Assembly (NCBI GenBank): GCA_963641945.1
Contig: CAVIDW010000003.1
Span: 16,874-80,873 of the forward strand
DNA: 64,000 nucleotides
Direction of reading: 5' to 3'
Source: a bacterium
GTDB taxonomy: Bacteria > Bacillota_I > Bacilli_A > RF39 > UBA660
Shown in pieces: positions 34,648-56,688 of this stretch; the first letter of the stretch is position 1; the number at the start of each line of letters is the position of its first letter. The notes under the pieces are model-generated. The model was given only the letters and a program-made list of their open reading frames with translations, was not told the DNA's origin and did not search any database. Both the position numbers and the translations under genes were made by a program.

Positions 34648-34785
34648 ATGGAAGAGAGTACAATTAATTTCGATATTTCTAAATTAACACTTAAAGAGTT
34701 AATAGAAGTATATGAAAAAATAAATTTATTTATAAAATACTTAGAAGATAATAGACTAGAACAAGAAGGAGAAAAACATGAATAA
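34648..34785 (+). CDS. 45-aa acidic micro-protein, translationally coupled to the next gene
   Basis: AAAGGAGAA RBS with a 7-nt spacer to the ATG. The stop overlaps the downstream ATG (ATGAATAA). Not in the ORF track. Confidence 0.4.
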   Translation: MEESTINFDISKLTLKELIEVYEKINLFIKYLEDNRLEQEGEKHE

Positions 34786-36400
34786 CTTTTTAGATTTTAT
34801 AAACGAAGATATAGAAGCAAAAAAAACTTTATTATCCTCTATGCCTACAAACAACAAAACAAATGTAAAAAAATATAACGAAAAAATAGACTCGACCATT
34901 GAAACATATAATGAATACAAAGAAAATATAAAAAAATATTTAAAAGCTAAGTCAGAAACATTTGAAGAAAAAGAAAAGAAAGACTCAAAAGATATAGAAT
35001 CATTAAAAAAGAAAGTAAAAGCATTAAAACATTTAGTTGTAATTTTGAATCCATTAAATACATATATAGAAAAATTAGAAATAGATGATTTAATGTTTGA
35101 CATTAAAAACTATTCAAGTATTTCTTTTGATAAATTAAATGAAATATTTAATACTTTAATAGATATATTTGCTTCTGCTGATATAAAACTTGAAAGTGAA
35201 AACTTTAATACAACTTATTATGTTCAAAAATATATGTCAGCATTATTTAAAATAAGAAATCAAAAATCTAAAGATTATAGTGAACTATCAGATACATTTG
35301 AAAAAATATATTGGTTTAATCCAGAAATTATAGAGCATATAGAATTGAATTTTAGAATATTATTAAAGAAAAATGATAAACAATTTAAAATATATATATC
35401 AAAATTAACAAAAAAATTAATGGAAGAATATAATATAGAAGATTACGAAGATGCAAAAAAGAAATATAAAGAAGCGTATAATGAATTAGAAAACTCACAA
35501 AAAGAAGATGTAAATGATCTTATAGATTTAGCAAAAAAAGGTACGATTGATATAAAAAATTATTTTGAGGATAGCAAATATAGAATTTCAACTTATGAAG
35601 CATTAATTATTAATCAGGAAAATAATGATGAGAGTAGATTTTATAAATCACTTGAAAAATTAAAACAAAATGCCTTGGAATATCGCAATTACACAAATTA
35701 CAAAGTGGTTTTTGATAATTTTAAAGAAGAATATCCAGTTACAACAAAAGAATTTGATAGTAGTAAACTAAAAGAATTAGAAACTAGTATTAATGAAAAA
35801 GAAGAAGAATTAGAAAAAATAAATAAAAAGATTTTTGCTAAAGATGGAAAAGAAGAAAAAAAGATTTTTGAATTTGCATCTAAAAAGAATGAAGAATCAT
35901 TAAAAAAATTGAAAATTGAATCTGTTAAAATAGCAAAAGAAATATATGATCTATATCAAGTATATGATAAAGAAAAAATCAAAGAAATGATTACGCCAAA
36001 TATAAGCAGTACAACTTTAATAGATGATGTATTAAAAATATATGCAAGTTTTAATTATTATAGAAAGAATGCTATAGAAAAAGCATTAAAAATTGATAAT
36101 TATAATGAGTTATTAATTGAAGACAAAAAATTTAAAGATTTTGCAGCTAACCCAAATAATATCGTTATAAATGGAATTTATTTATATGAAGAAAGTGATG
36201 TACCTAAAATAATTACAAATAAATATAGATTTGAAAATATAAATGTTCATGAAGATGAAGTATCTGATAATATAGATGCACTTTTAGAAAAAATAAATTT
36301 TGCACTAAGAGTAAATGTTATAAATAATGGTGAGTTAAATGTAGAAAAAATATGGTTTATTAAAGAAGTAGACTCATTATTAAATAATACGAAAAAATAG
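34778..36400 (+). CDS. 540-aa Lys/Glu-rich, predicted cytoplasmic coiled-coil protein, unknown function
   Basis: No signal peptide or TM helix. Strong heptad-like K/E/L content. I recognised no family motif. Confidence 0.55.
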   Translation: MNNFLDFINEDIEAKKTLLSSMPTNNKTNVKKYNEKIDSTIETYNEYKENIKKYLKAKSETFEEKEKKDSKDIESLKKKVKALKHLVVILNPLNTYIEKLEIDDLMFDIKNYSSISFDKLNEIFNTLIDIFASADIKLESENFNTTYYVQKYMSALFKIRNQKSKDYSELSDTFEKIYWFNPEIIEHIELNFRILLKKNDKQFKIYISKLTKKLMEEYNIEDYEDAKKKYKEAYNELENSQKEDVNDLIDLAKKGTIDIKNYFEDSKYRISTYEALIINQENNDESRFYKSLEKLKQNALEYRNYTNYKVVFDNFKEEYPVTTKEFDSSKLKELETSINEKEEELEKINKKIFAKDGKEEKKIFEFASKKNEESLKKLKIESVKIAKEIYDLYQVYDKEKIKEMITPNISSTTLIDDVLKIYASFNYYRKNAIEKALKIDNYNELLIEDKKFKDFAANPNNIVINGIYLYEESDVPKIITNKYRFENINVHEDEVSDNIDALLEKINFALRVNVINNGELNVEKIWFIKEVDSLLNNTKK

Positions 36401-36622: not shown

Positions 36623-38107
36623 ATGGCTAAAAAGAACAAAAAATACACAAAAAGAGTAAAGAATCTTGTTGTTATTTGTACACTTAGTTCATTAGTATTT
36701 ATCGTTACAACATTTGCATGGTTTATTGGTATGCGTACTGTTAACGTTTCTACTTTTGATGTATCAATTGCAACTACAGATTCATTATTACTATCATTAG
36801 ATGGTAAAAAATGGGATACTACTGTTTCAATTAACAGTACAAACTACAACGATACAGTAGATACTGTATATGTTGGAAATGCCAATACATGGAGTGATGG
36901 TGGATTAATTCCAATGTCTTCAATTGGCGAGATGGATGCAACAGCATCAAGAATGAAACTTTATCAAAAAGCTAGTTTAACTAAAACAGCAGGTGGCTAT
37001 AGATTAATGGCTAGCCGTGTTGATAATCACACAACGACTGTTGATGGCTTAAATTGGCAATACAATGAAGCAAAAGGATATGTTGCTTTTGACTTATTTG
37101 TTAAAAACTTCTCAGGGGTAGAATATTATACAGAAAATAATGAGGCTAATGAAGAGTCAATTTATTTAACTACTGATTCAGAAGTTAAGGTTGCAGCTGA
37201 TGGAGTAGCAAATACTGGTATTGAAAACTCAGTGAGAATTGCGTTTGCTCAAATTGGTAGAGTAATTGCAACAACAAGTGATCCTACTACAATTACAAGC
37301 ATTACATGTAATGGAGGAGGAAGTGTTACTGGAATTTGCCGTACTGCTCAAATTTGGGAACCAAATGAAGATAAACACGTAGCTGGAGCAATTAGCTATT
37401 ACAATACTTCTTGTAAAAAGAGAACGGGAGATAATGTCTTTACTGATGGAACTTATAGTGGAACATGCGGAACCGTTAATAATGATACAGCATATCCAAC
37501 ATATGCAATTGCTAAAGAAATTGCAGATGGAACGGTTGTTGATGTATATGATGGAGAAAAATATAATGGTTATACAACAACATCAACTGGTGCTGAAGCA
37601 TATTTGAATGCATATGATACATTCACAGATGCTGAAAAAATGGAACAAGGTGTACTTAGAAATGAATTTCTTACTTTAGCACCAAATAGTATTACTAAAA
37701 TTAGAGTTTATATCTATATTGAAGGACAAGATATTGACAACTATGATTTAGCATCTATTGGAAAGAAAATATCAGTTGCATTTGGATTTACTAAAGATAG
37801 ATTTGATTATAGTGAAGATGATGAATATCTTGCTAATGTTGTAGCAAATGATACAACTGCACCAACAATTACAATTATTAGAGATGATTTTGCTGAGGAT
37901 ACATTAACATTAGCTTTAAATGCTACATTTAATGCTCTAGATGGTGTAACTGCAACTGATGCTGAAGAAGGAGATATTACTGCAAGAGTTAGCGTTGTAA
38001 ATAATACTGTTAATACAGCAAAAGCTGGAGATTATATTGTTTCATACATAGTAAGTGACTGGGCAGGAAATTATACACAAAAAGATATTGCTGTCAAAGT
38101 ACAATAA
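36623..38107 (+). CDS. secreted TasA-like family protein with SipW-cognate-type signal and C-terminal bacterial Ig-like (DUF5011-like) domain
   Basis: The signal reads ..IVTTFA/WFIGMRTVNV. Conserved Cys pairs are present, along with IRVYIYIEGQDIDNYDL. The C-terminus (PTITII..LDGVTATDAEEGDIT..AGDYIVSYIVSDWAGN) resembles a DUF5011-type Ig domain. Confidence 0.65.
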   Translation: MAKKNKKYTKRVKNLVVICTLSSLVFIVTTFAWFIGMRTVNVSTFDVSIATTDSLLLSLDGKKWDTTVSINSTNYNDTVDTVYVGNANTWSDGGLIPMSSIGEMDATASRMKLYQKASLTKTAGGYRLMASRVDNHTTTVDGLNWQYNEAKGYVAFDLFVKNFSGVEYYTENNEANEESIYLTTDSEVKVAADGVANTGIENSVRIAFAQIGRVIATTSDPTTITSITCNGGGSVTGICRTAQIWEPNEDKHVAGAISYYNTSCKKRTGDNVFTDGTYSGTCGTVNNDTAYPTYAIAKEIADGTVVDVYDGEKYNGYTTTSTGAEAYLNAYDTFTDAEKMEQGVLRNEFLTLAPNSITKIRVYIYIEGQDIDNYDLASIGKKISVAFGFTKDRFDYSEDDEYLANVVANDTTAPTITIIRDDFAEDTLTLALNATFNALDGVTATDAEEGDITARVSVVNNTVNTAKAGDYIVSYIVSDWAGNYTQKDIAVKVQ

Positions 38108-38131
38108 AAACAATAAATTATAAAATAAATG

Positions 38132-38159
38132 GTAAAGAGTAAATAAAATTACTCTTTAC
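38132..38159 (+). other. 11-bp hairpin between the two tandem paralogues (possible partial terminator/processing site)
   Basis: GTAAAGAGTAA / TTACTCTTTAC with a 6-nt loop and no clear U tract. Confidence 0.4.
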
Positions 38160-38182
38160 TAAAATATATGAAAGGAAAAAAT

Positions 38183-39781
38183 ATGGCAAAAAGAAATAAA
38201 AAACAACAAAGACGTGTCAAAAACCTTGCATTAGTATTTACTTTAACTACAATTGTTTTAGTTACATCTACATTTGCATGGTTTATTGGTATGCGTACTG
38301 TTAATGTTGATGAATTTGATGTTACAATTGCAGCAGTTGATGGATTGTCTCTTTCTTTAAATGGAACTGATTGGACAGAAAAGTTGTCTGTTAGCAAAGA
38401 AGCAGCAAATTATGATGGAAACACTAATGTTTGGGCAGAAAAGGGGCTAATTCCTATGTCTACAATTGGTGCATTAGATGATAATTCATCTACAATGAAA
38501 CTATTCCAAAAAGCAAGTTTAACTAAAACTGATGGTGGTTATAGATTACTTGCTAGCCGTGTAAATAATTATACAGAAACAGATGGAAAATATAATGAAG
38601 GTGATGGATATGTTGCATTTGACTTATTCATTAAAAACCTTTCTGGAGAAGAGTACTATATAGAAGATAATATAGCAAATGAAGAAGCAATTTATTTAAC
38701 AAATGATTCTTCAGTTAAAGTTTCAACAAGTGGTGGAATAGCTGGCACAGGAATTGAAAATTCAGTAAGAGTAGCATTCGCTCAAATTGGTAGAGTAATT
38801 GCAACAACAACTAATGCTGATATTATCAGAGGATTGAAATGTACTGGTGAGGCTACTGAACTTACAGATCCAACAGGAATTTGTCGTACAGCACAAATTT
38901 GGGAACCAAATGATAGAAACCACGTAGCAGGTGCAATCGAATATTATAGTGAATCTTGCAAAACAAGAACTGCAGATGGATATGGAGATACTAAATGTAA
39001 AGCAATTACTGATGGACTTGCATATTCAACATATGCTATATCTGAAGTAATAACATATAAGGATGGAGAAAACTTATTACCAGTTGTAGATGTATATGAT
39101 GGAGCAGATTATAATGGTTATGCGGGTTCAACAAAACTTCAAGCTGTTGATACATTTACAGATAGTGAAAAGTTATTAGCTGGAACTGCTAGACAAGATT
39201 TTATGACATTAGCTCCAAATAGTATTACTAAAGTTAGAGTTTATGTATATATTGAAGGTCAAGATATTGACAACTATGACTTAGCACAAATTGGTAAGAA
39301 GATATCAATTAACTTTGGATTTACTAAACAAAGATTTAATGAAGATGATATAAATTACACTGGTGATAATACTAATGAAGGTGATGGACCATTTGTAGCA
39401 AATGGAGATGGAACTTATAAACAAGCAAATGATACTACTAAACCATACATTGTATTAACTGGTGAAGGCATTACAAATGACACATTAACTATAACTAAAG
39501 GCACTGACTTTAGTACACTTTCAATAACTGCTAAAGCATATGATAAGGTTTCTACATATGAGGAAGGAACAGATGATGAAGGAAATAAAACTTACAATGT
39601 AACAACAACAGTAAATAATGAATTAACATGTGCTGATGCAACAAAAGGTGGAGCTGGATGTATTACTGAATCTGGTACTGTAAATACTGCAGTTGCAGGT
39701 ACTTACCAAGTTGTATACTCAGTTAAAGATACATCTGGAAATCTTGGTACTAAAGTATTAAATGTAGTTGTAAATGAATAG
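38183..39781 (+). CDS. secreted TasA-like family protein, tandem paralogue of 36623, with C-terminal Ig-like domain
   Basis: I prefer the start MAKRNKKQQRRVKNL, which parallels the paralogue's MAKKNKKYTKRVKNL. The signal reads ..VTSTFA/WFIGMRTVNV. The C-terminus reads ..AGTYQVVYSVKDTSGN. Confidence 0.65.
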   Translation: MAKRNKKQQRRVKNLALVFTLTTIVLVTSTFAWFIGMRTVNVDEFDVTIAAVDGLSLSLNGTDWTEKLSVSKEAANYDGNTNVWAEKGLIPMSTIGALDDNSSTMKLFQKASLTKTDGGYRLLASRVNNYTETDGKYNEGDGYVAFDLFIKNLSGEEYYIEDNIANEEAIYLTNDSSVKVSTSGGIAGTGIENSVRVAFAQIGRVIATTTNADIIRGLKCTGEATELTDPTGICRTAQIWEPNDRNHVAGAIEYYSESCKTRTADGYGDTKCKAITDGLAYSTYAISEVITYKDGENLLPVVDVYDGADYNGYAGSTKLQAVDTFTDSEKLLAGTARQDFMTLAPNSITKVRVYVYIEGQDIDNYDLAQIGKKISINFGFTKQRFNEDDINYTGDNTNEGDGPFVANGDGTYKQANDTTKPYIVLTGEGITNDTLTITKGTDFSTLSITAKAYDKVSTYEEGTDDEGNKTYNVTTTVNNELTCADATKGGAGCITESGTVNTAVAGTYQVVYSVKDTSGNLGTKVLNVVVNE

Positions 39782-39845
39782 TAAATACATAAAATCAATT
39801 CAAAATATACTAACTATATGGTTATGTTAGCAATATATAAATATT

Positions 39846-39874
39846 AAAGAATAATCACAAGTTGGTTATTCTTT
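39846..39874 (+). terminator. hairpin terminator (weak U tract)
   Basis: Stem AAAGAATAATC / GGTTATTCTTT (one G-U pair) with a 7-nt loop. Confidence 0.5.
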
Positions 39875-39896
39875 AATTGTTTATAGGAGGCTTTAG

Positions 39897-41012
39897 GTGA
39901 AAAATAAAAAAGATGTCAAAAACAATAATAAAAGCACAAAGCAAAAAAAAATTAAGATATTAAATGATAAAAAAAGAACAAGAATATTGTTTTGCATTAC
40001 AGTACTTCTTACAATCTTGCTAATATCTTCAACATATGCTTGGTTTAAAGCATCTCTTAATGTAAAGGTTAAGTTTATAAATATGAAAGTATCTACAGAT
40101 AGTGGTCTATTTATATCATTAGATGGTGTCAACTTTTCCAGTGAAATAGAAGTATCAAGAGAATCAATTATGGAAGATATTAATGATATTTATCCAAATC
40201 ATACAAATCAATGGGCATCAAGTGGACTTTGGACAGTCTCATCAAATGGAATAGAAAATTCTAATTCAGATAAGTTTAATTTATTTTATGGTGAACTTGG
40301 TAAATATCGTAGTGGAGAGAAAAAAGGCCAAAGATATTTATCTACAATGAAGATAGATGAAAGTAAAAAACAATCATGGAATAGATATATTGCTTTTGAT
40401 ATATTTTTAAAGAATGTAAGTGGTTCACCAAAAAGTGATAATTTATACTTAACTGAAGAGACATATTTTCAATTTGAAGATGGATATTTAGAAGGTTTAG
40501 AAGAAGATGATAGAGTTGAAATGGAAGGAATAATGAATTCTATTAGGCTTGGAATTGTAAGAATAGGTGATACTACTCTTAATGCTGATAAAGACACAAT
40601 TCAAAATTTAAAATGTAATAATAATTGTAAAACTATAATATATGAACCATTTAGTACTTCGCATACAGAAAAATCAATTGAAGATGCTGCTGAATATGGA
40701 ATTACAATGAGTAATGGAGAGTATATTCCAACTTATGGAGTATATAGTGAAGGAATATATTTAAATCATAAGAGTTGTTACTTTAATTCTGGAGTTTCAA
40801 TTGATACAGAACATTTTGCTCTACAAAAAACAATAAAAGATTCAAATTTAGATGATCCAATATTTCAATTACCAAATGGTATAACAAAATTACGTGTATA
40901 TATTTGGTTAGAAGGACAGGATATAGATAGTTTAGAAACACATTCAACAGGTGCTCCTATAGATGTTGGATTAGACTTTATAAAAGACTTATCAGGTTAT
41001 GAAGGATATTAG
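39897..41012 (+). CDS. secreted TasA-like family protein (third paralogue, no Ig tail)
   Basis: GTG start after an AGGAGG RBS. The signal reads ..ISSTYA/WFKASLN. It shares YIAFDIFLKNVSG and LRVYIWLEGQDIDSLE with the paralogues. Confidence 0.6.
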   Translation: MKNKKDVKNNNKSTKQKKIKILNDKKRTRILFCITVLLTILLISSTYAWFKASLNVKVKFINMKVSTDSGLFISLDGVNFSSEIEVSRESIMEDINDIYPNHTNQWASSGLWTVSSNGIENSNSDKFNLFYGELGKYRSGEKKGQRYLSTMKIDESKKQSWNRYIAFDIFLKNVSGSPKSDNLYLTEETYFQFEDGYLEGLEEDDRVEMEGIMNSIRLGIVRIGDTTLNADKDTIQNLKCNNNCKTIIYEPFSTSHTEKSIEDAAEYGITMSNGEYIPTYGVYSEGIYLNHKSCYFNSGVSIDTEHFALQKTIKDSNLDDPIFQLPNGITKLRVYIWLEGQDIDSLETHSTGAPIDVGLDFIKDLSGYEGY

Positions 41013-41030: not shown

Positions 41031-44000
41031 TTGACAAGATTAAATTATAAAAAAATTATATATCTTTTAATTACGTTAATTTTTATAATGGGTATTACTA
41101 TTGCTATTCCTTCATTAGCAAGATATAAAAATAGAGTAAACACAGAAATAAATGTATGGGATGGAACTGTAGCAACCAGTTTCAAAAGTGGAGAAGGCAC
41201 AGCTTCATCTCCATATATAATTTCAAATGGTAGTGAACTTGCTTATCTTTCTGATTCATTAAAGGCAAACAATTATGAAGGTATTTACTTTAAAATATCT
41301 AGTGATATTGTTTTAAATGATGGAAAATTTAATTATGAAGATAATAAATACATATATGAAAAAGACAATAATAAATATTATATAAAAGATGATAAATATT
41401 ATAGTGATATTGGATATACAAGCGAAGTTGGCTCATTAAATATTTTAAATTCACTAGAAGGATTTAAAGGTACATTTAATGGAGATTCCCATGTAATATC
41501 AGGATTATATATGTATAATGATGAATCAGCTTTATTTAAAAGTTTAAATGGAAAAGTAGAAAAATTATATATTAAAAATTCTCTTTTAACGGGAAATAAA
41601 GCTGCATCACTAGTAACAAATTCTACTTCATCAATTATAAATGAAATACTATTTGATGGATTTGTTATTAGTAATGCAGAAAGTAAGATAAAAAATGGAA
41701 CAATTTCTATTGATACAATAGAATTAAACAATAATTCAAAGACAATAACTATAAATATAGATGATAGTATAGAAAGTTATAATAATATTAGTTCAATTAC
41801 AGTAAATGGTGACTATAATATAGATACTAATAATGGTTCTGTTTTAATAAACGAAACACCTGTAACTGATAATCATTTTGAAATAACTACAACAAATAAA
41901 TATTTTACAATTACTGCTAGTTCTACAGAAATAACTAATATTGGATTTGATAATGTATCATATGAAATAACTTATAATGATAATATGGCTAGTGGAATAG
42001 CGTTAAACGTTACCAACACTGAACTTACAAATATTATCAATAAAGGAAAAATATATTCTAATAATGTTTCAAGTGGAATAGTTGGAATATTAAATAACTC
42101 AAATTTAACTAATGCTTATAATAATGGAGTAGTAAATACTTTAGGTGGAATAACTTCATATATAACAGGAAGTTCTAGTTTAATTAATGTATATAATACT
42201 TATGAAGAAACATCTTTGATTAATATAATAGAAAATTCAAATTTAAATATAATTGGCTCTTTTAATACATCAAATATTAAACCAATAAATAATAATATTA
42301 ATTCAGTATTAAGTATCCAAGACTCATATATAGTTGATAGTTCTTTAGACAGTACATCTAGTTTTACCATAAAAACGATAGAAGAATTAAAATCAGAAAA
42401 TATGAAGAATATATTCCATGAATATATTTCACTTGATGACTTAAATTCAAATATAGATAATGCTTGGATATATGAAAATGATAGTTATCCACTTTTATTT
42501 AATGATGATATAACTAATGGAATTGCAACTCTTCATATTAAAACATATTCATATGATAATTTTAGTAATGTTTTAGAGACATTTAATTATAAAGATAATG
42601 TTTCATTTGGTATAGAAGATAATGATGAATTAAATCCTAGTAGTAAATATTATTATATTCATAATAGTAATACGCCTCTATCAAAAACAGAACTTGAAAG
42701 CATTGAAAATTGGATAGAATATAATCAAATACAAACAATATCTGAAGAAGGAAATTATATAGTATATGTTAAACTAGTAAATAATAATAAAACATATTAT
42801 ATAAATTCAGATGTATTTGCTATTGATAAAACTATTCCAAGTGTTACATTAACATTAGATAATAATGTATGGAATTCATTAAATACCGAATTAAATACAA
42901 TAGATATAGATGGCGAAAAGGCATTTACAATTGATGCTGTTGACTTACTATCAGGAGTTAAATCAATAAAATATTATTTATCAAAAAATATATTAAGTGA
43001 AACAGAATTAAGTAGTGTAGAGTGGATTACTTATGATGAAAATGCAAAAATTAAAGATTTAGGTAAATATATCATATATGTAAAAGTAAGTGATAAAGTT
43101 TCAAATGAAACAATAATAAATAGTGATTATATAAATTATGATGGATATAAATTAACTATAACATCTGGTAATCATTTGAATAGTAATTTAAATATAACAG
43201 ATAAATCTAAATTAAAATTTAAATTTATATATGATGGAGAAAACAATGTATCTGGAACACATAGTTTAGTTTCAAACACACTATTGCCAAATGGAACAAT
43301 AATAACATTAAATGATCAAAATAAAATATATGAACATATAGTTGATAACATTTCAAACAATTATGGATATGAAACTAATAATTATGCTACATATAATTTT
43401 GTACTATTTAAAGAAAAAAATAAATATAATGATACTTACTATCAAGAAAGTAATAGCGTTGGAGTAGAAAATATAGAAGTTACAATAGACTTTAAAAATA
43501 CAAATTTAACAAATAATTTAGAAAATGTTACATTATCATTAAATATTGGCAATGATAGAAAAACACTACAAAGTAACATTAAAGAATTTAATGTATATAT
43601 AGATAGTGATGCTACACTTGAATTAACATCAACTTATGACAATAAAGAAATAGAATTTAATATAGATTCAACTATAAGTATAGAGTTATCTAGTGGTGTT
43701 AAATATGCTACCAAAGATTCACAATCAGTTTTAGATACAACATATGAAGATAAAATGCAGGGCATTGCAATTAAATTACTTGATAGCAATAATAATATTT
43801 TAGATAAAACATATTTAGAAAAATTAGTATTTACTATAGATGGAATAAATTATACACCAGATAATGATAATATAATAAGAATCCCATTTAGTGATACAAC
43901 ATCATTAACAACAAAATCATTATTAATTACAACATCAAAAAGTGATTTAAATCTAACTGAAGATAATATAAATATAGAAATATCTAATTATATCTCATAT

Positions 44001-44444
44001 GATGGAAAGTACTATAATGAATTAAATAACAGCATTATAATTCCAGTTGTAATAACAAATAATAATAAAACAACAACTGATTATGAATTTAGTATTACAG
44101 TAGCAGATGAATCAAGAATAATAAATAAGAAAGATGAAAGTACTACATTAGATTTTGATATTGTTACCAAAAACATAATAAATCCTACAATTAAAGTTTC
44201 ATTATATAAAAAAGATAAATTAACAGCATATGATCAAACATACAATATAGTTGACTTAAAAGAATATACAACATCCACATTACAATCTTTTACTACAAAT
44301 GTATATTTGACAGATATAAATGATACATTTACTTTAAATTTAATACCTAGTAAATTTGAAAGCAATGGATATAAATTTGTATTTGATTTATATAGTGATA
44401 ATGTAAAAATAAATACTATAGAAAAGTATTTTATTGCTAAGTGA
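41031..44444 (+). CDS. 1137-aa Asn/Ile-rich secreted giant protein with SipW-type signal, beta-helix-like N-terminal region and tandem Ig-like modules
   Basis: TTG start after an AGGAAG RBS. The signal reads ..AIPSLA/RYKNRVN. GEGTASSPYIISNGSELAYL..YFKISSDIVLNDG is typical of passenger/beta-helix adhesins. Two repeated ..EL.S(I/V)EW(I).Y..I...G.YI(V/I)YVK modules follow. Confidence 0.6.
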   Translation: MTRLNYKKIIYLLITLIFIMGITIAIPSLARYKNRVNTEINVWDGTVATSFKSGEGTASSPYIISNGSELAYLSDSLKANNYEGIYFKISSDIVLNDGKFNYEDNKYIYEKDNNKYYIKDDKYYSDIGYTSEVGSLNILNSLEGFKGTFNGDSHVISGLYMYNDESALFKSLNGKVEKLYIKNSLLTGNKAASLVTNSTSSIINEILFDGFVISNAESKIKNGTISIDTIELNNNSKTITINIDDSIESYNNISSITVNGDYNIDTNNGSVLINETPVTDNHFEITTTNKYFTITASSTEITNIGFDNVSYEITYNDNMASGIALNVTNTELTNIINKGKIYSNNVSSGIVGILNNSNLTNAYNNGVVNTLGGITSYITGSSSLINVYNTYEETSLINIIENSNLNIIGSFNTSNIKPINNNINSVLSIQDSYIVDSSLDSTSSFTIKTIEELKSENMKNIFHEYISLDDLNSNIDNAWIYENDSYPLLFNDDITNGIATLHIKTYSYDNFSNVLETFNYKDNVSFGIEDNDELNPSSKYYYIHNSNTPLSKTELESIENWIEYNQIQTISEEGNYIVYVKLVNNNKTYYINSDVFAIDKTIPSVTLTLDNNVWNSLNTELNTIDIDGEKAFTIDAVDLLSGVKSIKYYLSKNILSETELSSVEWITYDENAKIKDLGKYIIYVKVSDKVSNETIINSDYINYDGYKLTITSGNHLNSNLNITDKSKLKFKFIYDGENNVSGTHSLVSNTLLPNGTIITLNDQNKIYEHIVDNISNNYGYETNNYATYNFVLFKEKNKYNDTYYQESNSVGVENIEVTIDFKNTNLTNNLENVTLSLNIGNDRKTLQSNIKEFNVYIDSDATLELTSTYDNKEIEFNIDSTISIELSSGVKYATKDSQSVLDTTYEDKMQGIAIKLLDSNNNILDKTYLEKLVFTIDGINYTPDNDNIIRIPFSDTTSLTTKSLLITTSKSDLNLTEDNINIEISNYISYDGKYYNELNNSIIIPVVITNNNKTTTDYEFSITVADESRIINKKDESTTLDFDIVTKNIINPTIKVSLYKKDKLTAYDQTYNIVDLKEYTTSTLQSFTTNVYLTDINDTFTLNLIPSKFESNGYKFVFDLYSDNVKINTIEKYFIAK

Positions 44445-45922: not shown

Positions 45923-46447
45923 ATGAAAGTATTAAATGCAATAAAAAAATTTTTTCTAGGAGTTTTAACATTTGTGTTCTTTGTTTACGCGATTGCAATG
46001 ACATTTCTATTATTAAATTTTAATGATTACGGAGTTACAGAAGTTGGGGATACATCTGTAATTATAATTAAAGATAAAATATCTAATGAAAATTATAAAA
46101 AAGGTGACATTGTACTTGTAGAAAATAAGCAAATGAAGAATATACAAGTAGGAGATGAGTTATTTGCTTATAGAATTGATTCTAAAGGTGCTGCAAATAT
46201 TGAAATAGGAACAGTTGGTCAAGTACATTTAGATAGCGAAGCAGTTACTTTTGAAAATGGAGACTCTTACTCATATGAATTCTTAATCGGAGAAGGAACT
46301 AAAACTATTGGTAGTTTTGGAACATTCTTGGGACTAGTCGAATCTAAATGGGGATTCTTATTCACAGTACTAGTACCAAGTTTCATATTCTTTGTATATA
46401 ATCTATATGCATTAATCGTAGAAATAAAATACGGAGATGAAGAATAA
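45923..46447 (+). CDS. SipW-like bitopic membrane protein lacking recognisable catalytic motifs (possible pseudo-peptidase)
   Basis: SipW-like size and topology (N-terminal and C-terminal TM helices) and a KGDIVLV..VGDELFAY beta-core pattern. GSMxP and THR(I/V) boxes are absent. Confidence 0.4.
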   Translation: MKVLNAIKKFFLGVLTFVFFVYAIAMTFLLLNFNDYGVTEVGDTSVIIIKDKISNENYKKGDIVLVENKQMKNIQVGDELFAYRIDSKGAANIEIGTVGQVHLDSEAVTFENGDSYSYEFLIGEGTKTIGSFGTFLGLVESKWGFLFTVLVPSFIFFVYNLYALIVEIKYGDEE

Positions 46448-46989: not shown

Positions 46990-47039
46990 TAACAAAATAT
47001 AATGCAAATTTTCTTTATTTTAATTAATGGAGTGAAAAA

Positions 47040-47921: not shown

Positions 47922-47929
47922 GAGTTAAA

Positions 47930-50020: not shown

Positions 50021-52144
50021 ATGAAAAAAATGAATAAAGTTGTTGAAAAAGTAGCAAATGTATCATTAAATATACTAATCGGAATATTTGCAATCATATT
50101 GCTTATATTTATATATAAAGGATTTCAAGTTAAAATTTTAAAGAATGATTTTAATTTCTTTGGATATACAATGTTTGAAGTTCAAACAGGAAGTATGAAA
50201 AGTTATATTAATGCTGGAGATTGGGTAGTAGTAAAACTTACAAAGGATGTAGATATTAATGATGTCATTACATTTAAGCAAGATGGAAATAATATTACAC
50301 ATAGGGTAATTGAAATATATAATGGAACCTATATTACCAAAGGGGATGCTAATAATTCGAAAGATGACCCAATAGATCAAAGTCAAATAATTGGAAAGGT
50401 AGTGAAAGTTCTTAGCGGATTTGGAATACTGCGAAAAACAATATTTAATCCAGCAGTAATAATTGCTTTAATAATAACTTTGTTATTATTTAATTTAACT
50501 TTTAAGAATGATGTGGAAAGTATGAAAAAGAAAAAACAAATAAGAATTATAGTAAATAAGATAATAAATCTCTTTAAAAATATTAAGAAAGATGAATTTA
50601 GTGATTTGGATAAATTTGATGAATCTAAGAAAGAAAGAATAGAAGAAGAAAAAATCATCAAGCAAGAAATACTTGATGAGGGTGACATTCAAAAAGAGCC
50701 AAAGAAAGAAGAACTAAGTAAAACATCAATGTTTAGAGTTGTTAGTGTTAGAAAAGAAGGACATAAACCTAAAGAAGAATCAAAAATAGAAGAAAAAATT
50801 GAAGCAGATGAAGAAATAATTGAATCAGAAAAAACTCCTGAGCAAATTGAAGAAGAATTAAGTAAAACTTCTATGTTTAGAATAATTAAAGCTGATACAA
50901 GTGATATAGACAAAAAAATAAAAAAGATAATTAAAAAAGAAAAAAAGGAAAATAAAGATAATAACGTCTATACAGTAACTCTAGAAGCAGAAAAAGTAGT
51001 TAAAAAACTTGATAAAAATATGGGAAAAAACGAAAGAAGTGAAAAGAGTGAATCTATAAATTCAAATGATTTAAAAATCAAAACATATAATACAAAAGCT
51101 AAGACAATAATAGAAAAAGCAATTAAAGTAAAAAAACTAGAAATAAATCAAGTAATCGATGTTATATTAGAAGGTCAAAAATCATATGTAATTAAATCAA
51201 GTTTTAGAACAGACTTTATAGATGCATATATTACTAGTAAATATTATTTGGCAGAAAATTCAAATAGTATTGGTGATGTAAAAGAATCTATCAGTGCTTT
51301 AAGTAAAAAACTAACAAAGAAGAACATTAGAGATGAAAAACAAAAGTTAATTATTAAAACATATGAAGATTTAATGCTTTTATATTCAAATATTGATAAA
51401 TACAATAAAGATGAAGAAAATAGAATAACTTTTTATCAAAAGACATTAAGAAAATATAGTAATTGGGATATAGAATATATTAATTATTTAGTTTATAGAA
51501 TTATTGAAATACAAAATAAATGTTTAGATGAAATGGAAGAAAGTTATAAAAAACTAGAAACAGATACATTTGAAATAACATTTAATAAAATATCAAATAA
51601 TAAAGATTTATATTCAGCAGTATTAAATCATAATATATCATTTAGTAGTGTATATAGCGATTATATAGTTGATAAAACATATAATGAAGGAATCGTATCA
51701 GAAGATAAAGTAGTAGTTCTTATAACATTATTATCAAGTAGAATTGCAAAAGATATAACGAACTATGATTATAATAAAAAATATGTAGTTTATATGCCAA
51801 GCGGATTATATGAAAAAGAAAAGAAAATGGCTGGATTATTAAAATTAATTGAAGATGAATATGCTAAAAATCATATCTATATATTATTAGATGCTAATAC
51901 GTTGATATTGAACAAGAAAATAACAACGAATCTTAAAAAACAAGGATATAATTTTGCAGTTGTATTAAATGATGAAAGCAAAATTAATGAAAAAAACATA
52001 GGTGCATTGTATTTAGCAGATTATATATTTGTAAGTAAAGATATTAAAAACATATCAAATATAATTGGAGAAGTACCTAATGAACTTTTAGAAAAAATTG
52101 TAAAAGAAAATATAAAAAAATTGGGTGATTTTGGAGGCGAATAA
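50021..52144 (+). CDS. SipW-type (ER-type S26B) signal peptidase fused to a ~540-aa cytoplasmic extension
   Basis: The N-terminal ~160 aa comprise a TM helix, QTGSMKS (Ser box), ITHRVIE (His box), TKGDANNSKDDP (Asp box) and a second TM helix. A K/E-rich linker with duplicated EELSKTSMFR(V/I) follows, then a globular domain of about 330 aa of unknown family. Confidence 0.7.
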   Translation: MKKMNKVVEKVANVSLNILIGIFAIILLIFIYKGFQVKILKNDFNFFGYTMFEVQTGSMKSYINAGDWVVVKLTKDVDINDVITFKQDGNNITHRVIEIYNGTYITKGDANNSKDDPIDQSQIIGKVVKVLSGFGILRKTIFNPAVIIALIITLLLFNLTFKNDVESMKKKKQIRIIVNKIINLFKNIKKDEFSDLDKFDESKKERIEEEKIIKQEILDEGDIQKEPKKEELSKTSMFRVVSVRKEGHKPKEESKIEEKIEADEEIIESEKTPEQIEEELSKTSMFRIIKADTSDIDKKIKKIIKKEKKENKDNNVYTVTLEAEKVVKKLDKNMGKNERSEKSESINSNDLKIKTYNTKAKTIIEKAIKVKKLEINQVIDVILEGQKSYVIKSSFRTDFIDAYITSKYYLAENSNSIGDVKESISALSKKLTKKNIRDEKQKLIIKTYEDLMLLYSNIDKYNKDEENRITFYQKTLRKYSNWDIEYINYLVYRIIEIQNKCLDEMEESYKKLETDTFEITFNKISNNKDLYSAVLNHNISFSSVYSDYIVDKTYNEGIVSEDKVVVLITLLSSRIAKDITNYDYNKKYVVYMPSGLYEKEKKMAGLLKLIEDEYAKNHIYILLDANTLILNKKITTNLKKQGYNFAVVLNDESKINEKNIGALYLADYIFVSKDIKNISNIIGEVPNELLEKIVKENIKKLGDFGGE

Positions 52145-52146
52145 TT

Positions 52147-53709
52147 ATGAATACATTCTTACGATTTTTTTACGAATTTATATCAATATTTTTTGATGGA
52201 GTAGAAAAAATTGTAAAAGGCTTTATAAATGGCTTTATGCAAATGTTTAATTATGGAGATTATAAACAAATAATAAGCAATTATAAAGGAAGTTTTAGTG
52301 GAATAGAATGGGTATTTGTAGGATTAGGTGTGGCATTTTTTGTTCTCCTAGTTGGAGCAATTTTAGTACTTATATTTATGGGTATTAGAAAAATATTTAG
52401 ACTTAGAAAAGAGAAATTAAATCAAGATGAATTATTAGATGAAATTGGGGAACTAAATGATAAAGTTAAGCAATTGATGAAAGAAAAAGATGAATTAATG
52501 GCCATGAAAGTTTCTCAATTAGGATTAAATCCAAAAGATGAGCCAACAGAAGAACAAAAAGAAGAAAATAAAAATGCTGATGGTTATACTGAAGAAGAAC
52601 AAAATACAGAAGACCTTGATGAAGCTGGAAATGTTCGTTTTCCTAAACTTGTTAGAATCGATCAAGAATATAAGAATTATAAAATTAAAAATTATAATAA
52701 CAACTTCTCTTTAGAAGAATTAATAGATAACTTTAGATGTTTTGCTGCAAGTCAACTTCATTTATATTATGAAGCACATTTGTTAAGAGCATTCATTGGA
52801 GGTCTTGCTTGTGGTAAATTAATTATCTTACAAGGTATTTCTGGTACAGGTAAAACATCTTTAGCATATGCTTGGGGTAAATTTGTTAAAAATGATTCAT
52901 GCGTAGCATCAGTTCAACCATCATGGAGAGATAAAACTGAATTACTTGGATACTTTAATGAATTTACTAAAAAGTTTAACGAGTCAAACGTTTTAGAAGA
53001 GTTATACTTAGCCGGATATGATGATAATGTTCATACAATAATACTTGATGAAATGAATATAGCCAGAGTTGAATATTATTTTGCAGAAATGCTATCTATA
53101 TTAGAATTACCTCAAAGAAGTGAATGGCAGATTGAACTTGTATCTACAATATGGCCAGATGATCCAAAAAGGTTGGATAAAGGAAAACTTCATTTACCTG
53201 GAAACTTATGGTATATTGGAACAATCAATAATGATGACTCAACATTTATGGTAACAGATAAAGTATACGATAGAGCAATGCCTATTGATATAAATAAAAA
53301 GATAGATCCATTTGAATGTAGAGAACAAGAAGCAGTTGCTATAAACTCAAGTTATTTAGAAAGTTTATTTAAACAAGCATTCGAAGATCATAAATTATCA
53401 CAAAAATCAATTAAAATGGTTGAAGAAATTGATAATTATGTTATCGCTCATTTTAGAGTTGCATTTGGTAATCGTATTATGAAACAATTAAGAGACTTTA
53501 CAGCAGTTTATGTAGCTAGTGGTGGAGATGAAGTAGAAGCAATAGACTATTTTCTAGCACAAAAAGTATTAAGAAAATTTGACCAATTAAATATTGCTCA
53601 AATAAGAGATGAAATAGATGGTTTTATTAAATATCTTGATGCATCAACTGGTAAAGGCAAAATGAAAGAATGTATTGCATTTTTAGAAAGATTAAAGAAA
53701 TCAGTTTAG
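52147..53709 (+). CDS. membrane-anchored McrB-family AAA+ GTPase homologue
   Basis: TM helix (WVFVGLGVAFFVLLVGAILVLIFMGI) followed by RKIFRLRKEK, then a coiled coil. The core is McrB-like: ILQGISGTGKTS, VQPSWRDKTELLGYF, IILDEMNIARVEYYFAEMLSILE, NLWYIGTINNDDS (NxxD), YDRAMPIDI. Confidence 0.75.
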   Translation: MNTFLRFFYEFISIFFDGVEKIVKGFINGFMQMFNYGDYKQIISNYKGSFSGIEWVFVGLGVAFFVLLVGAILVLIFMGIRKIFRLRKEKLNQDELLDEIGELNDKVKQLMKEKDELMAMKVSQLGLNPKDEPTEEQKEENKNADGYTEEEQNTEDLDEAGNVRFPKLVRIDQEYKNYKIKNYNNNFSLEELIDNFRCFAASQLHLYYEAHLLRAFIGGLACGKLIILQGISGTGKTSLAYAWGKFVKNDSCVASVQPSWRDKTELLGYFNEFTKKFNESNVLEELYLAGYDDNVHTIILDEMNIARVEYYFAEMLSILELPQRSEWQIELVSTIWPDDPKRLDKGKLHLPGNLWYIGTINNDDSTFMVTDKVYDRAMPIDINKKIDPFECREQEAVAINSSYLESLFKQAFEDHKLSQKSIKMVEEIDNYVIAHFRVAFGNRIMKQLRDFTAVYVASGGDEVEAIDYFLAQKVLRKFDQLNIAQIRDEIDGFIKYLDASTGKGKMKECIAFLERLKKSV

Positions 53710-53720
53710 GAGTGAATTAA

Positions 53721-54842
53721 ATGGCAAAGACAAGTATAGAAATTGACAAAGAAATAAAAAAACAATGTAATCTTTTTCTAAAAAATACAGAATCAAATAT
53801 GCATTATCTTGCAGATTTAGATAATACATTAAGTTCTACAAAATGGTTAGAAATAATGGAAGAAACATTTCCATATTTAGATACATATATTAGAGCTCCA
53901 AAAGTAGCATTAATTACTGAAACAGAAACACAACCCATTGAAAAAGCAAAAAAAATTGGAGTAGAAAGTGTTAAAGATTTAGCAAAACATAGTAATTATA
54001 TTGAAAATGTAGTTAGTGATAAAGATATTAAACCATCAAAAATACTTGTCTTACTTCGTGAAGAAACATACAATACATACGAGAATAGATTTATTTATAC
54101 ATTGGTTCATGAAACTTTAAGATTTATAATTTTAATGGAAGAAAAACTAAAAAAATTAGAATCAAAAGATCAAAAACAATTAGAGTATACATCTAATACA
54201 AATAATGGAAAAGATAAAATTAAAATATGCTTAAGAATCAGTGCTGTTGAAATAGATAAAGGATCAAAAAATAGTGATTTTGAAGCACAAGTTAGTAATA
54301 TCAAAAAAAGATTAAAATTACTAAAGGAATATATAACTTTATGGCAAAGATGTGAAATGATGGAATCACTTAAAAAAGCACATGTTCCATTTGTAACATC
54401 TCCAATTAAAAAGACTAATTTAATATTAAAAAATCCAAACTTTAAAGAAGCAACAAAACTATGGAATTTTTTAATGAATTACTTAGATAATGAATCAAAT
54501 AAAAATAAACTATATGATACAAATGGTAATCAATTCTTAAGAAATATATTAGATGAATCATTTTTGATGGATTATTATGTATTAGATGCAATCTCAAATA
54601 TAAGAAAGAATCAAAGAGATAAGCTTACACAATATGCTGTATTAATGATTAGTGAACAAGTTAAAAAATCAATGGAAATATTACTATATAATGGAATAAA
54701 GGTATCTGAAGAAAAACTATTACAAATGGTAAATATAGAAATAAATAATGATAAAAGTAAAATGGCACTAGGAAGTAGTGATATAAAGAAAAAATTTGAA
54801 AAAGAAATGAATGAATACCTGGCAAAGGTTCAAAATTTATAG
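53721..54842 (+). CDS. McrC-like (N-terminal domain only) partner protein with no recognisable PD-(D/E)xK nuclease motif
   Basis: It occupies the McrC position 12 nt after the McrB-like gene. ETYNTYENRFIYTLVHETLRFI resembles the McrC EDTLANRIIKSTL region, and LKNPNFKEATKLWNFLMNY is also present. I see no D..(D/E)xK motif equivalent to IIDAKYY. Confidence 0.5.
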   Translation: MAKTSIEIDKEIKKQCNLFLKNTESNMHYLADLDNTLSSTKWLEIMEETFPYLDTYIRAPKVALITETETQPIEKAKKIGVESVKDLAKHSNYIENVVSDKDIKPSKILVLLREETYNTYENRFIYTLVHETLRFIILMEEKLKKLESKDQKQLEYTSNTNNGKDKIKICLRISAVEIDKGSKNSDFEAQVSNIKKRLKLLKEYITLWQRCEMMESLKKAHVPFVTSPIKKTNLILKNPNFKEATKLWNFLMNYLDNESNKNKLYDTNGNQFLRNILDESFLMDYYVLDAISNIRKNQRDKLTQYAVLMISEQVKKSMEILLYNGIKVSEEKLLQMVNIEINNDKSKMALGSSDIKKKFEKEMNEYLAKVQNL

Positions 54843-54851
54843 GAGCAAATA

Positions 54852-55424
54852 ATGAAAAAAATAAAAAATAATAAAGTACTAAAAATTATACTTAAAGTTA
54901 TTAAAGCTTGTATAATTATAACATTAATAGCATTTATATTAGTTGTTTTTTTACAAAGATTCAGTAATAATAAATTATCATTATTTAACTATAGAATCTT
55001 TGCAGTAGCAACTGGTTCTATGCAACCAAAATATAATATTGGTGATGTATTAATATCAAAAGATGTAGATCCAAGTAAATTAAAAGTTGGAGATAATATT
55101 AGTTATTTAGGAACTAAATCAAATTTTAAAGGAAAAGTTATAACGCACCAAATAGTTAAAATTGAAACAGATGAAAATGGTAAATTATTATTCTATACAA
55201 AAGGTATAGCAAATCTAGTAGAAGATCCAGTAGTTGAAGAAGGTCAAGTGTATGGAAAAGTTATTTATAAAACAATTTTATTATCATGGTTATATAAATT
55301 TGTTAGTACAAGTACTGGGTTTGGATTAATAATAGTTATTCCAATAATAATAATTATTGGATATGAAATACTTGCAACATTACTAGAAAAAAAGGAAGAA
55401 GAAATTAACTCAAAAAGAAAATAG
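54852..55424 (+). CDS. SipW-type signal peptidase homologue with altered Asp box
   Basis: N- and C-terminal TM helices, ATGSMQPKY (Ser box) and ITHQIVK (His box). TKGIANLVEDP stands where SipW has KGDNN. Confidence 0.7.
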   Translation: MKKIKNNKVLKIILKVIKACIIITLIAFILVVFLQRFSNNKLSLFNYRIFAVATGSMQPKYNIGDVLISKDVDPSKLKVGDNISYLGTKSNFKGKVITHQIVKIETDENGKLLFYTKGIANLVEDPVVEEGQVYGKVIYKTILLSWLYKFVSTSTGFGLIIVIPIIIIIGYEILATLLEKKEEEINSKRK

Positions 55425-55440: not shown

Positions 55441-56688
55441 ATGAAAAAAAGACATAAATTATATATAAAACTTAATTTAGTTTCATTAATTTTCATTGTT
55501 GTGTCTTTAATTTTTACAACACTTGCATGGTTTGCATATAGTGGTTTATCTTCCTTAGATACAGAAATCGGTGTAAAAGCATGGTATATAGAATTAACTA
55601 AGAATGGCGAAGCAGTTGCTAATGATATAGTTATTTCAATTCCAACAATTTATCCAGGAATGGATACAATAACTGAAAAGATAAATATTGAAAATTTTGG
55701 TGATTCCGTTGCACAGGTAAAATATGAAATTTTATCAGCAAGAATACTTGACACTAAATATGATACAGAAAATGATAAAAGTATTGTTTCAGAAGATTTA
55801 GAAACATCATTATCTCATGATTATCCATTTCATATAAATATAAGTTTGAGTGATTATGTTGTTGATTCAAATGGTGGAACAGCAACATTTAAAGTAAGCG
55901 CATCTTGGCCATTAGATGGTGGAAATGACAGTGCTGATAGTGAATGGGGAACGAAAGCATATGAATTCTCTCAAGCAGAAAAAAATAAACAAGCAACTGA
56001 TTCAAATTATGCTATAGACTCACCAATTCAAGTTGTAATAAAAGTAAGTGCTGAGCAATATGTTGATAGTGATACATCAAGTTCAAGAGATTATGCATAT
56101 GGTAATACAATATTATATAATGTAGTAGCAGATGATTTTTGTTCTAAAGTTAGTGACACATGTATAAGTACAACAGTAATTGATGAAAACAATAAAATAG
56201 GCGATGAAACAATTACTGTAATACCAAATATATTAACAAAATTTACAGAGGCAACTTATGATAATTATAATAATACATTAAATAGTATTACTTCAAACTG
56301 GAATGTAGAATATAGAGCTTTAACAGCAGATGATGTATTAAAAATTATTTCAAGAGATATAGAATCATCAAATATGATTAGTTCTTCATTATCTAATATA
56401 ATAATTGGAAAAATGAATTCATCAGAATTAATAAATCAAACATTGAACAATGCAGTTTTACTAGATGGACATTTTGAATTTATTAATGATAATTTTAAAT
56501 TTTTATATAATTCTTCAAGTACATGTTATTGGACAATGACAGAATATAATACAAGTAAAGGTTACGCTTTCTCAAAGATAGATAGTAGTAAATCTAAATT
56601 ATATGGAGAAAATAAAACCACTTCTTGTCAAGTATTACCAGTAATAATAATAACAAAAAAAGAAATTATAAAGGAAGAAAATGGTTAA
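55441..56688 (+). CDS. TasA-like secreted protein with SipW-cognate-type signal and extended C-terminal domain
   Basis: The signal reads ..IFTTLA/WFAYSGLS. IYPGMDTITEKINIENFGDSVAQVKYEI and IQVVIKVSAEQY are TasA-like strands. Confidence 0.6.
   Translation: MKKRHKLYIKLNLVSLIFIVVSLIFTTLAWFAYSGLSSLDTEIGVKAWYIELTKNGEAVANDIVISIPTIYPGMDTITEKINIENFGDSVAQVKYEILSARILDTKYDTENDKSIVSEDLETSLSHDYPFHINISLSDYVVDSNGGTATFKVSASWPLDGGNDSADSEWGTKAYEFSQAEKNKQATDSNYAIDSPIQVVIKVSAEQYVDSDTSSSRDYAYGNTILYNVVADDFCSKVSDTCISTTVIDENNKIGDETITVIPNILTKFTEATYDNYNNTLNSITSNWNVEYRALTADDVLKIISRDIESSNMISSSLSNIIIGKMNSSELINQTLNNAVLLDGHFEFINDNFKFLYNSSSTCYWTMTEYNTSKGYAFSKIDSSKSKLYGENKTTSCQVLPVIIITKKEIIKEENG

Follow-up and report, generated by a model that had tools for sequence, protein, structure and literature searches.

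McrBC is the textbook GTP-driven restriction nuclease. We analysed a relative of its McrC subunit, a protein of 373 amino acids (aa), and the McrB-like GTPase encoded immediately before it, in 64,000 nucleotides (nt) of DNA from a bacterium of the GTDB lineage Bacillota_I; Bacilli_A; RF39; UBA660 (assembly GCA_963641945.1, contig CAVIDW010000003.1, positions 16,874 to 80,873 of the forward strand); this whole stretch is called the window, and coordinates below count from its first nucleotide. The pair lies in a cluster of ~22 kb and 13 genes, among genes for signal peptidases and for secreted surface proteins of a TasA-like kind. Reasoning from the solved McrBC complexes, we consider it probable that the 373-aa protein is a GTPase-activating plug and adaptor of a membrane-tethered McrB motor coupled to the biogenesis of surface fibres or pili, and not a restriction subunit. 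The two genes are:

52147..53709, + strand: McrB-like AAA+ GTPase, 520 aa, with an N-terminal transmembrane helix (residues ~55-82) and a coiled coil, and no DNA-binding domain
53721..54842, + strand: McrC-like protein, 373 aa, a DUF2357 "finger" half followed by an all-helical tail

Comparison with described systems

In solved McrBC structures the finger domain of McrC fills the pore of the McrB hexamer, with a conserved Arg or Lys beside the signature loop of one active site, and it has been proposed from the structures that hydrolysis proceeds round the ring with stepwise movement of McrC, a scheme likened to the F/V-ATPases (PMC7680126). The window pair resembles EcoKMcrBC and Thermococcus McrBC (PDB 6HZ4, 6UT6; PMC7680126, PMC6624300) in its Walker A and B motifs, its N-x-x-D-like signature, the partner gene directly downstream, a domain of the McrC N-terminal type and the ...NR[IF]I..[ST]L motif. 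It differs in that the McrB protein has no DNA-binding domain and appears to be membrane-tethered, the partner has no PD-(D/E)xK nuclease, and the neighbours are secretion and surface genes.

Two further classes are named by Bell et al. (eLife 2024; PMC11090510). CoCoNuTs (CnuB/CnuC) have an NxD-type McrB with coiled-coil fusions, and their CnuC is often without an active nuclease; the coiled-coil fusions and the lack of an active nuclease recall the window pair. They always carry HEPN or another nuclease together with RNA-binding domains, however, and none of these was found in the window locus (Pfam, NCBIfam, PADLOC), where McrB is fused to a membrane anchor and the genes around the pair encode peptidases and secreted proteins. 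CoCoPALM, the second class, is described as having an NxD-type McrB that carries an FtsB-like transmembrane helix and coiled coil as a fusion, signal-peptidase genes alongside, and coiled coils on both the McrB and the McrC homologues (on the latter "usually"). It is given two sentences there, its analysis being deferred to a later paper; our literature searches found no such follow-up.

By its sequence features the locus matches the CoCoPALM class, which is named and little analysed. The likeness covers the FtsB-like transmembrane helix and coiled coil of the window McrB, the DUF2357 McrC homologue without a nuclease, and the signal peptidases in the operon: two TIGR02228 peptidases flank the McrB/McrC pair and a third, dead paralogue lies upstream. 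As to the coiled coil on the McrC homologue, residues 184-372 of the window protein are helical in an AlphaFold2 (AF2) model; this tail is short (~110-190 aa) and differs in that from a long coiled coil. The available text of Bell et al. does not set out the content of the 13 genes found here, with three SipW paralogues (one of them dead), seven secreted proteins that have a TasA-like cleavage motif in common, and a cytoplasmic domain of unknown kind on one of the peptidases.

A nuclease-free relative of McrC

One Pfam family matches the 373-aa protein, namely DUF2357 (PF09823; E 6.6e-10, 39.1 bits against a cutoff of 23.3 bits, residues 8-163), called the "McrC N-terminal domain" by Bell et al. 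(2024; PMC11090510); E. coli McrC is assigned to another Pfam family, PF10117. NCBIfam and PADLOC gave no match for the protein. Gene context points the same way. One genome per GTDB species was scanned, giving 157 loci with a relative, of which 80 were examined, and a McrB homologue lies directly upstream wherever the contig includes that gene (78 McrB homologues in the 80 loci). The McrC-like character of the N-terminal half, proposed in a first-pass annotation of this DNA, is thus upheld by an above-cutoff family match and by the constant position of the family right after a McrB-like GTPase, and these same two observations argue against the possibility, which that annotation had allowed for, of a protein with no relationship to McrC.

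Both motifs that had been picked out by eye are present, TYENRFIYTLVHETL (likened to the TLANRIIKSTL region of McrC) at residues 119-133 and NPNFKEATKLWNFL (a downstream helix) at residues 238-251. Among 75 diverse homologues, down to 22% identity, there is no variation at Y120, E121, N122, N233 and W248, and conservation is 95-99% at R123 and K237; the best-conserved stretches are residues 50-130 and 220-250, and the least conserved is 250-373. Judged from this alignment, the two motifs are the most conserved positions of the family, with conservation far above chance. E. coli K-12 McrC does contain TLANRIIKSTL (N106-R107); its EDTLANRIIKSTL compares with EETYNTYENRFIYTLV of the 373-aa protein, and an E-x-T...NR-[IF]-I-x-[ST]-L motif is common to E. 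coli McrC and the 373-aa family. The McrC nuclease motif had been slightly misquoted as IIDAKYY, the E. coli K-12 protein reading ILIVDAKYY.

The Arg or Lys by which McrC stimulates the GTPase is K157 in EcMcrC and R263 in TgMcrC. In the window family a basic residue stands at the positions of K77, R123, R197 and K237 in 97-100% of sequences, while R172, whose spacing is equivalent to that of K157, is not conserved; mapping onto K157 needs a structural alignment.

The gene is separated from that of the McrB homologue by an 11-nt gap, and its Shine-Dalgarno sequence AGGAG, 7-13 nt before the ATG, overlaps the stop codon of the McrB-like gene.

A nuclease was sought by profile, by conservation and by predicted fold, and none of the three revealed a D...(D/E)xK arrangement, in agreement with the earlier reading of the sequence by eye. 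Seven [DE]xK tripeptides occur in the 373-aa protein (positions 11, 102, 140, 147, 150, 330 and 354), none of which attains 80% conservation across the broad family, and no acidic column does so past residue 165. Pfam, NCBIfam and PADLOC gave no nuclease match, and there was no nuclease among the Foldseek matches in the PDB.

The core of a PD-(D/E)xK nuclease has the order alpha-beta-beta-beta-alpha-beta. The AF2 model used here was built from the 75-sequence alignment (mean predicted local distance difference test score, pLDDT, 80.6; predicted template-modelling score 0.53); a first model from 25 close sequences was discarded as too poor (pLDDT 60.8). The 75-sequence model is mixed alpha/beta in its N-terminal half, with a 25-residue helix starting at YENR, a long beta-hairpin at 150-176 and further long helices. 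From residue 184 to 372 it shows helices and, as the sole exception, a strand of 4 residues; such a topology is incompatible with the alpha/beta nuclease core. Neither the profiles nor the model gave an intact nuclease fold in the C-terminal ~110 aa. The tail ends in one 43-residue helix, residues 330-372 being modelled as a single long helix, and the last 44 residues are 32% K+E, much as the K/E-rich helical tail had been described at first sight. Near the start of this last helix stands a G-S-x-D-[IV]-K-x-K-F motif (residues 351-359; 54771-54797), of which G351, D354, K356, K358 and F359 are invariant in the 25 closest homologues and less well kept in the wider family; the motif may serve for docking in this lineage specifically.

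The missing nuclease is not a local loss. A word-index search returned 750 homologues, of which the 120 listed, whose lengths are known, have 373-393 aa and PF09823 as their sole domain. An exhaustive search of representatives gave 1701 proteins at E<1e-3, the closest with 360-385 aa (short fragments aside). More distant relatives have 450-1150 aa and only the first ~260-300 residues in common with the 373-aa protein; their tails of 200-800 aa are rich in K/E/Q/R/D/L, which suggests coiled coils. A Pfam scan of ten of these long relatives found a nuclease domain in none and PF09823 in eight (E 1e-7 to 1e-12). Against the 84%-identical orthologue in locus L002, the ratio of nonsynonymous to synonymous substitution rates (dN/dS) of the 373-aa gene is 0.116 at a dS of 0.71, with values of 0.07-0.22 across all operon genes, and by this measure the gene is functional. 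Within this clade the form without a nuclease is ancestral, and the DNA-cutting half was never present.

We regard as very improbable an open reading frame (ORF) that is a decayed or truncated McrC shorn of its nuclease, or a protein unrelated to McrC that hits DUF2357 by chance. Such an account could cite the solved McrC structures, which were matched neither by sequence nor by fold. It has to face ~750 homologues of ~376 aa (lengths from those listed), the breadth of the representative set and the low dN/dS, which together dispose of the truncation that the first-pass annotation had left to a homologue alignment; DUF2357 found independently in the 373-aa protein and in the long relatives; the McrB homologue always immediately upstream; and the NR motif present in E. 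coli McrC also. As far as the tools used here allow, it is refuted.

One relative in this set has a different architecture: P0258 (L086:112-3162) is a single 1016-aa protein comprising DUF2357, a coiled coil, a transmembrane helix, a signal peptidase (TGSMEP) and a second transmembrane helix. Either the McrC-like and SipW genes are naturally fused here, or the protein is an artefact of read-through or assembly.

The McrB-like partner

Residues ~205-410 of the 520-aa protein align with E. coli McrB (6hz4_A, E 1e-4 in the PDB; NCBIfam McrB, 1.7e-5), and the PADLOC profile PDC-M26A matches over the AAA+ core only (3.7e-37). The GTPase motifs are intact: Walker A (GISGTGKT) and Walker B (DEMN) are each present in 72 of 72 full-length McrB-like homologues, and the signature loop GTINNDDST in 69 of the 72, with NNDE in one. 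This loop can be read as NxD followed by D, the pattern of the NxD branch of Bell et al., and HMMER aligns it ungapped to the NTAD (NxxD) of E. coli, so that the assignment to NxD or NxxD is ambiguous.

Where a DNA reader would be expected, a single long hydrophobic segment (~55-82) leads into basic residues and a stretch rich in K/E/L; residues 56-133 give a weak match to an FtsL-like NCBIfam model (NF053549, E 0.0087). The positive-inside rule would put the AAA+ domain on the cytoplasmic side, with a tether in the membrane. With a nuclease undetectable in one partner, and a transmembrane helix and coiled coil standing where the other should read DNA, classical restriction is implausible for this pair, as had been argued from the first inspection. 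An idea that the McrB gene is conserved like housekeeping genes was dropped: against the closest relative, Lon has a dN of 0.012 and McrB one of 0.045, and the Lon genes of distant loci are possibly not orthologues.

An operon of signal peptidases and surface proteins

The pair is embedded in an operon of five genes (707-aa peptidase with tail, McrB, McrC-like, 190-aa SipW, 415-aa secreted protein) with gaps of 2-16 nt. The operon is translationally coupled, its ribosome-binding sites overlapping upstream stop codons; that of the 190-aa SipW gene overlaps the stop codon of the McrC-like gene. The first-pass annotation had not noticed this SipW/TasA-like setting of the pair. The other three operon genes and the third peptidase paralogue are:

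50021..52144, + strand: peptidase with tail, 707 aa; transmembrane helix, active SipW-type signal peptidase, transmembrane helix, K/E-rich linker and ~330-aa cytoplasmic domain
54852..55424, + strand: SipW-type (endoplasmic reticulum (ER)/archaeal-type) signal peptidase I, 190 aa; two transmembrane helices, catalytic Ser and His
55441..56688, + strand: secreted protein with signal VTLA|WF, 415 aa; always after the SipW gene
45923..46447, + strand: dead SipW paralogue, 174 aa; two transmembrane helices, catalytic His replaced by Gly

Both operon peptidases pass the TIGR02228 cutoff of 51.85 bits, the 707-aa protein with 66.8 bits (1.9e-18) and the 190-aa protein with 82.8 bits (2.3e-23), and both keep the Ser of GSM and the His of ITH. 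The C-terminal ~330-aa domain of the larger one (51101-52141) has F157, E201, Y228, K239 and K242 invariant in 47 sequences and no sequence match in Pfam or the PDB, and a by-eye guess of an EAL-like identity found no support in those searches. In Clostridia this domain is a separate gene just upstream of McrB, which suggests a partner dedicated to the McrBC pair. The third paralogue matches TIGR02228 weakly (0.0047), still resembles the two operon peptidases in sequence and is presumably inactive, to judge from its lost His; it is conserved in 59 loci, where both transmembrane helices are kept and most copies have a displaced Ser or none, and it may hold signal peptides rather than cleave them.

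Besides the 415-aa protein, six secreted proteins and one cytoplasmic protein are encoded upstream:

34778..36400, + strand: cytoplasmic protein, probably a coiled coil, 540 aa, 28% K+E; in some Clostridia loci
36623..41012, + strand: three paralogous secreted proteins, candidate major subunits, 494, 537 and 371 aa; signals TFA|WF, TFA|WF and TYA|WF
41031..44444, + strand: secreted protein with signal SLA|RY, candidate tip or adhesin, 1137 aa
44457..44993, + strand: secreted protein with signal TYS|IF, camelysin/TasA-like family, 178 aa
44978..45880, + strand: secreted protein with signal SLA|KY, minor-subunit candidate, 300 aa

TasA is cut at TWA|AF by the ER-type SipW, and a Phe at P2' is poorly handled by P-type peptidases (PMC10269814). 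All seven secreted proteins of the window carry [ST]-x-[AS]-x-[FY] immediately behind the hydrophobic part of their signal peptides (TFAWF, TFAWF, TYAWF, SLARY, TYSIF, SLAKY and TLAWF), and the motif is kept in orthologues; as a predicted cleavage motif it matches that of TasA, with an aromatic residue at P2'. In the 415-aa protein T27, A29, W30 and F31 are invariant or nearly so in 39 homologues, and the 300-aa homologues have TLARY, SFARY or TSAKY at the same locus position.

Family assignments are fewer. The 178-aa copy in the window matches PF12389 below the Pfam cutoff (E 0.0071), and 15 of 48 members of its family match, at best with E 1e-5; the other six secreted proteins gave no match to PF12389, the TasA/camelysin fold that polymerises by donor-strand exchange. 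Two of the three large paralogues end in a bacterial surface immunoglobulin-like domain (PF16403, 1e-9 and 1e-5), and this three-paralogue family has homologues in Clostridia and other loci. Homologues of the 1137-aa protein, of 1053-1232 aa, occupy the same position in L082 and L084. The 415-aa protein had no Pfam or PDB match, its 766 homologues all being annotated as hypothetical, and the 540-aa protein, whose membership in the system is tentative, had no Pfam or NCBIfam family.

Between the dead paralogue and the 707-aa gene lies a cassette of ~3.4 kb (46567-49912) with genes for a 140-aa secreted protein, a protein with six transmembrane helices, an ATP-binding cassette (ABC) ATPase (PF00005, 5e-33) and two further proteins with multiple transmembrane helices. 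It looks like an inserted ABC exporter or immunity module, because the 84%-identical L002 has a short remnant only.

The substrate side of the locus recalls sipW-tasA-tapA of B. subtilis and sipW-bsaABC of C. perfringens, with a substrate family matching camelysin/TasA and several paralogous substrates per locus. Those systems have 3-4 genes and no NTPase, whereas the window has three peptidase paralogues, more substrates and an embedded McrBC-like GTPase pair. As an analogy only, the arrangement may also be set beside the type IV filament machines (PilB/PilC/PilD), which combine a membrane-associated hexameric NTPase on the cytoplasmic side and a leader peptidase of their own with major, minor and large tip-like subunits that carry a common N-terminal processing motif. 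The parts are not homologous: a McrB-type AAA+ protein stands against the PilB/GspE ATPase, a serine peptidase (S26) against an aspartic one (A24), and a cleavable Sec-type leader against the class III signal.

Distribution and genomic setting

The 80 loci all come from metagenome-assembled genomes (MAGs) or metagenome assemblies labelled Bacilli, Mollicutes/Tenericutes, Clostridia or Muribaculaceae (the last probably mis-binned); the MAGs closest to the window are L001 (98%) and L002 (84%). Common to the loci is the gene set of dead SipW, peptidase with tail, transmembrane McrB, DUF2357 protein, SipW and secreted protein. The order is the same in all Bacilli loci, with the 1137-, 178- and 300-aa genes preceding wherever the flank is long enough. 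Clostridia have the same parts in another order: two genes, one for a ~165-aa peptidase and one, directly before McrB, for a ~330-aa protein, replace the single 707-aa gene (L067-L080), and homologues of the 371-aa protein, in some loci also of the 540-aa protein, lie downstream. A distant, 662-aa relative in L087 is flanked by a McrB gene, four proteins with [ST][YF]AW[FI] signals and a SipW gene. The same locus (L087:6411-12274) encodes two LRR_5 proteins of >1400 aa with an equivalent [ST][YF][AS]W[FY] signal; by this sequence evidence a CoCoPALM-like system can evidently export very large adhesin-like cargo.

The flanks of the cluster are ordinary chromosomal genes (Lon, an RNase J-like protein, an RbgA-type GTPase, transporters), and no integrase or other defence genes were seen in them; scans of the 64 kb window found no tRNA and no Rfam element. 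G+C content is 21-33% along the window, the GC skew is positive from end to end and almost every long ORF lies on the + strand, as would fit a small, AT-rich Bacilli genome with a strong strand bias. Promoter-like sites in this 25% G+C DNA number 139 against 121 expected, and neither they nor a terminator scan were informative. Two genes outside the cluster deserve mention: (i) a 794-aa ORF (20480-22864) joins an amino-acid kinase (PF00696, 8e-30) to a DcuC-type C4-dicarboxylate carrier (PF03606, 1e-77), an unusual fusion; (ii) an 829-aa protein (28946-31435) has a C-terminal GDSL lipase/acylhydrolase and a weak collagen-repeat match near its N-terminus.

This setting bears on whether the pair could instead be the core of an anti-phage or conflict system akin to the CoCoNuTs, its effector being the membrane or peptidase component or an unrecognised nuclease in trans. 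The PADLOC hit of the McrB-like protein is to a defence candidate; the nearest described relatives, the CoCoNuTs, are predicted defence systems in which, according to Bell et al. (PMC11090510), nuclease-less McrC homologues are paired with separate nucleases; and two conserved cytoplasmic parts, the C-terminal ~330 aa of the 707-aa protein and the K/E-rich 540-aa protein, have no recognised fold. However, no nuclease, HEPN or other effector domain was found in the conserved genes (Pfam, NCBIfam, PADLOC), and PADLOC recognises nothing beyond the McrB AAA+ core. The fixed partners are signal peptidases and seven structural-looking secreted proteins, the flanks are ordinary, with neither integrase nor tRNA nor other defence genes seen, and the genes are under purifying selection with synteny maintained across Bacilli and Clostridia. 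We judge a defence role distinctly unlikely.

A proposed tethered motor and its alternatives

The role in surface biogenesis that we consider probable for the 373-aa protein would work as follows. The DUF2357 "finger" half would sit as a plug in the pore of the hexameric McrB ring and raise its GTPase activity, with K237, R123 and K77 as candidate residues, as the solved complexes suggest by analogy. The variable helical tail, in the nuclease's place, would act as an adaptor, its likely partners being the cytoplasmic domain of the 707-aa protein or the 540-aa protein. The McrB ring would be tethered under the membrane through the transmembrane helix and coiled coil, and GTP hydrolysis, gated by the 373-aa protein, would be passed to the membrane peptidase complex through coiled coils and the 707-aa cytoplasmic domain. 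The output would be controlled or energised processing, by SipW cleavage, and polymerisation of TasA-like fibres or pili. The sequences themselves show domain content without a nuclease, intact GTPase motifs, the operon structure, conserved synteny and purifying selection; the McrB-McrC contact, the stimulation of the GTPase, cleavage by SipW, the formation of fibres and the coupling of these steps are our inference.

Several points weigh against this proposal. The relation to McrC is indirect: searches of the PDB sequences with the protein and family profiles (phmmer, hmmsearch) found no McrC, and hhalign of the family profile against E. coli McrC found nothing. Foldseek of the AF2 model against the PDB gave nothing significant, E. 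coli McrC (6hz4_M) ranking 32nd with E 0.56 and a template-modelling score of 0.23-0.25. Among the long Foldseek alignments 6hz4_M does have the highest such score and by far the lowest root-mean-square deviation (8.4 A over 242 columns), a geometric fit of the model that is suggestive only and no evidence by itself. Of the comparisons that the first-pass annotation had called for, the one with DUF2357 was thus positive (Pfam) and the one with solved McrC negative (Foldseek, hhalign), and since a direct match is absent the McrC link rests on DUF2357, the shared NR motif and the invariant gene context. Most of the secreted proteins have no detectable family (Pfam, PDB), so the TasA-like label rests on one small family and the signal motif, and NCBIfam gave no match to a SipW-cognate signal peptide. 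The P0258 fusion is weak evidence, because it is known from a single 4.6 kb contig. The carriers of the 80 loci include no cultured isolate, all being titled MAG, uncultured or metagenome assembly. Lastly, known TasA-type fibres polymerise without an NTPase (PMC11580942, PMC9674648), and because known TasA/SipW systems need none, the role of the GTPase here is unexplained.

That last fact also favours a different function for the GTPase pair, as a regulator, checkpoint or quality-control device that gates SipW or anchors the fibre base, or as an organiser of the envelope or division site, and not as an assembly motor. The McrB N-terminus resembles an FtsB/FtsL-type transmembrane helix and coiled coil (the weak NF053549 match; Bell et al.), and the dead peptidase paralogue suggests substrate holding over catalysis. 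The present data separate regulator from motor in neither direction, and the strict conservation of the GTPase motifs fits both; we think the regulatory alternative unlikely, if less so than defence.

Beyond the plug and adaptor role of the 373-aa protein, we put forward tentatively, as a possibility that we do not hold to be the likelier outcome, that a McrB-type ring with a nuclease-free McrC "shaft", recruited from restriction enzymes, is the cytoplasmic engine of an uncharacterised class of Gram-positive surface filaments, whose TasA-like subunits would be set free by ER-type signal peptidases, with GTP governing their polymerisation and perhaps their retraction. Such a filament would be a functional analogue of the type IV pilus machines made from unrelated parts, widespread in uncultured gut Bacilli and Clostridia.

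Significance

The class is already named, so this is no discovery of a new kind; the anatomy of the locus exceeds the description in the available text of Bell et al. It makes the class directly testable through the component list, the cleavage motif that the secreted proteins have in common, the inactive peptidase copy and the residues proposed to activate the GTPase. A branch of McrBC with neither DNA reader nor nuclease, wired to signal peptidases and secreted fibre proteins, points to a motor reused outside nucleic acids. If the motor model is true, it would be a new energy-dependent route to surface fibres in Bacillota. Gut lineages about which little is known (RF39-like Bacilli, Clostridia MAGs) commonly carry the system, and such fibres could matter for adhesion or biofilm formation in animal guts.

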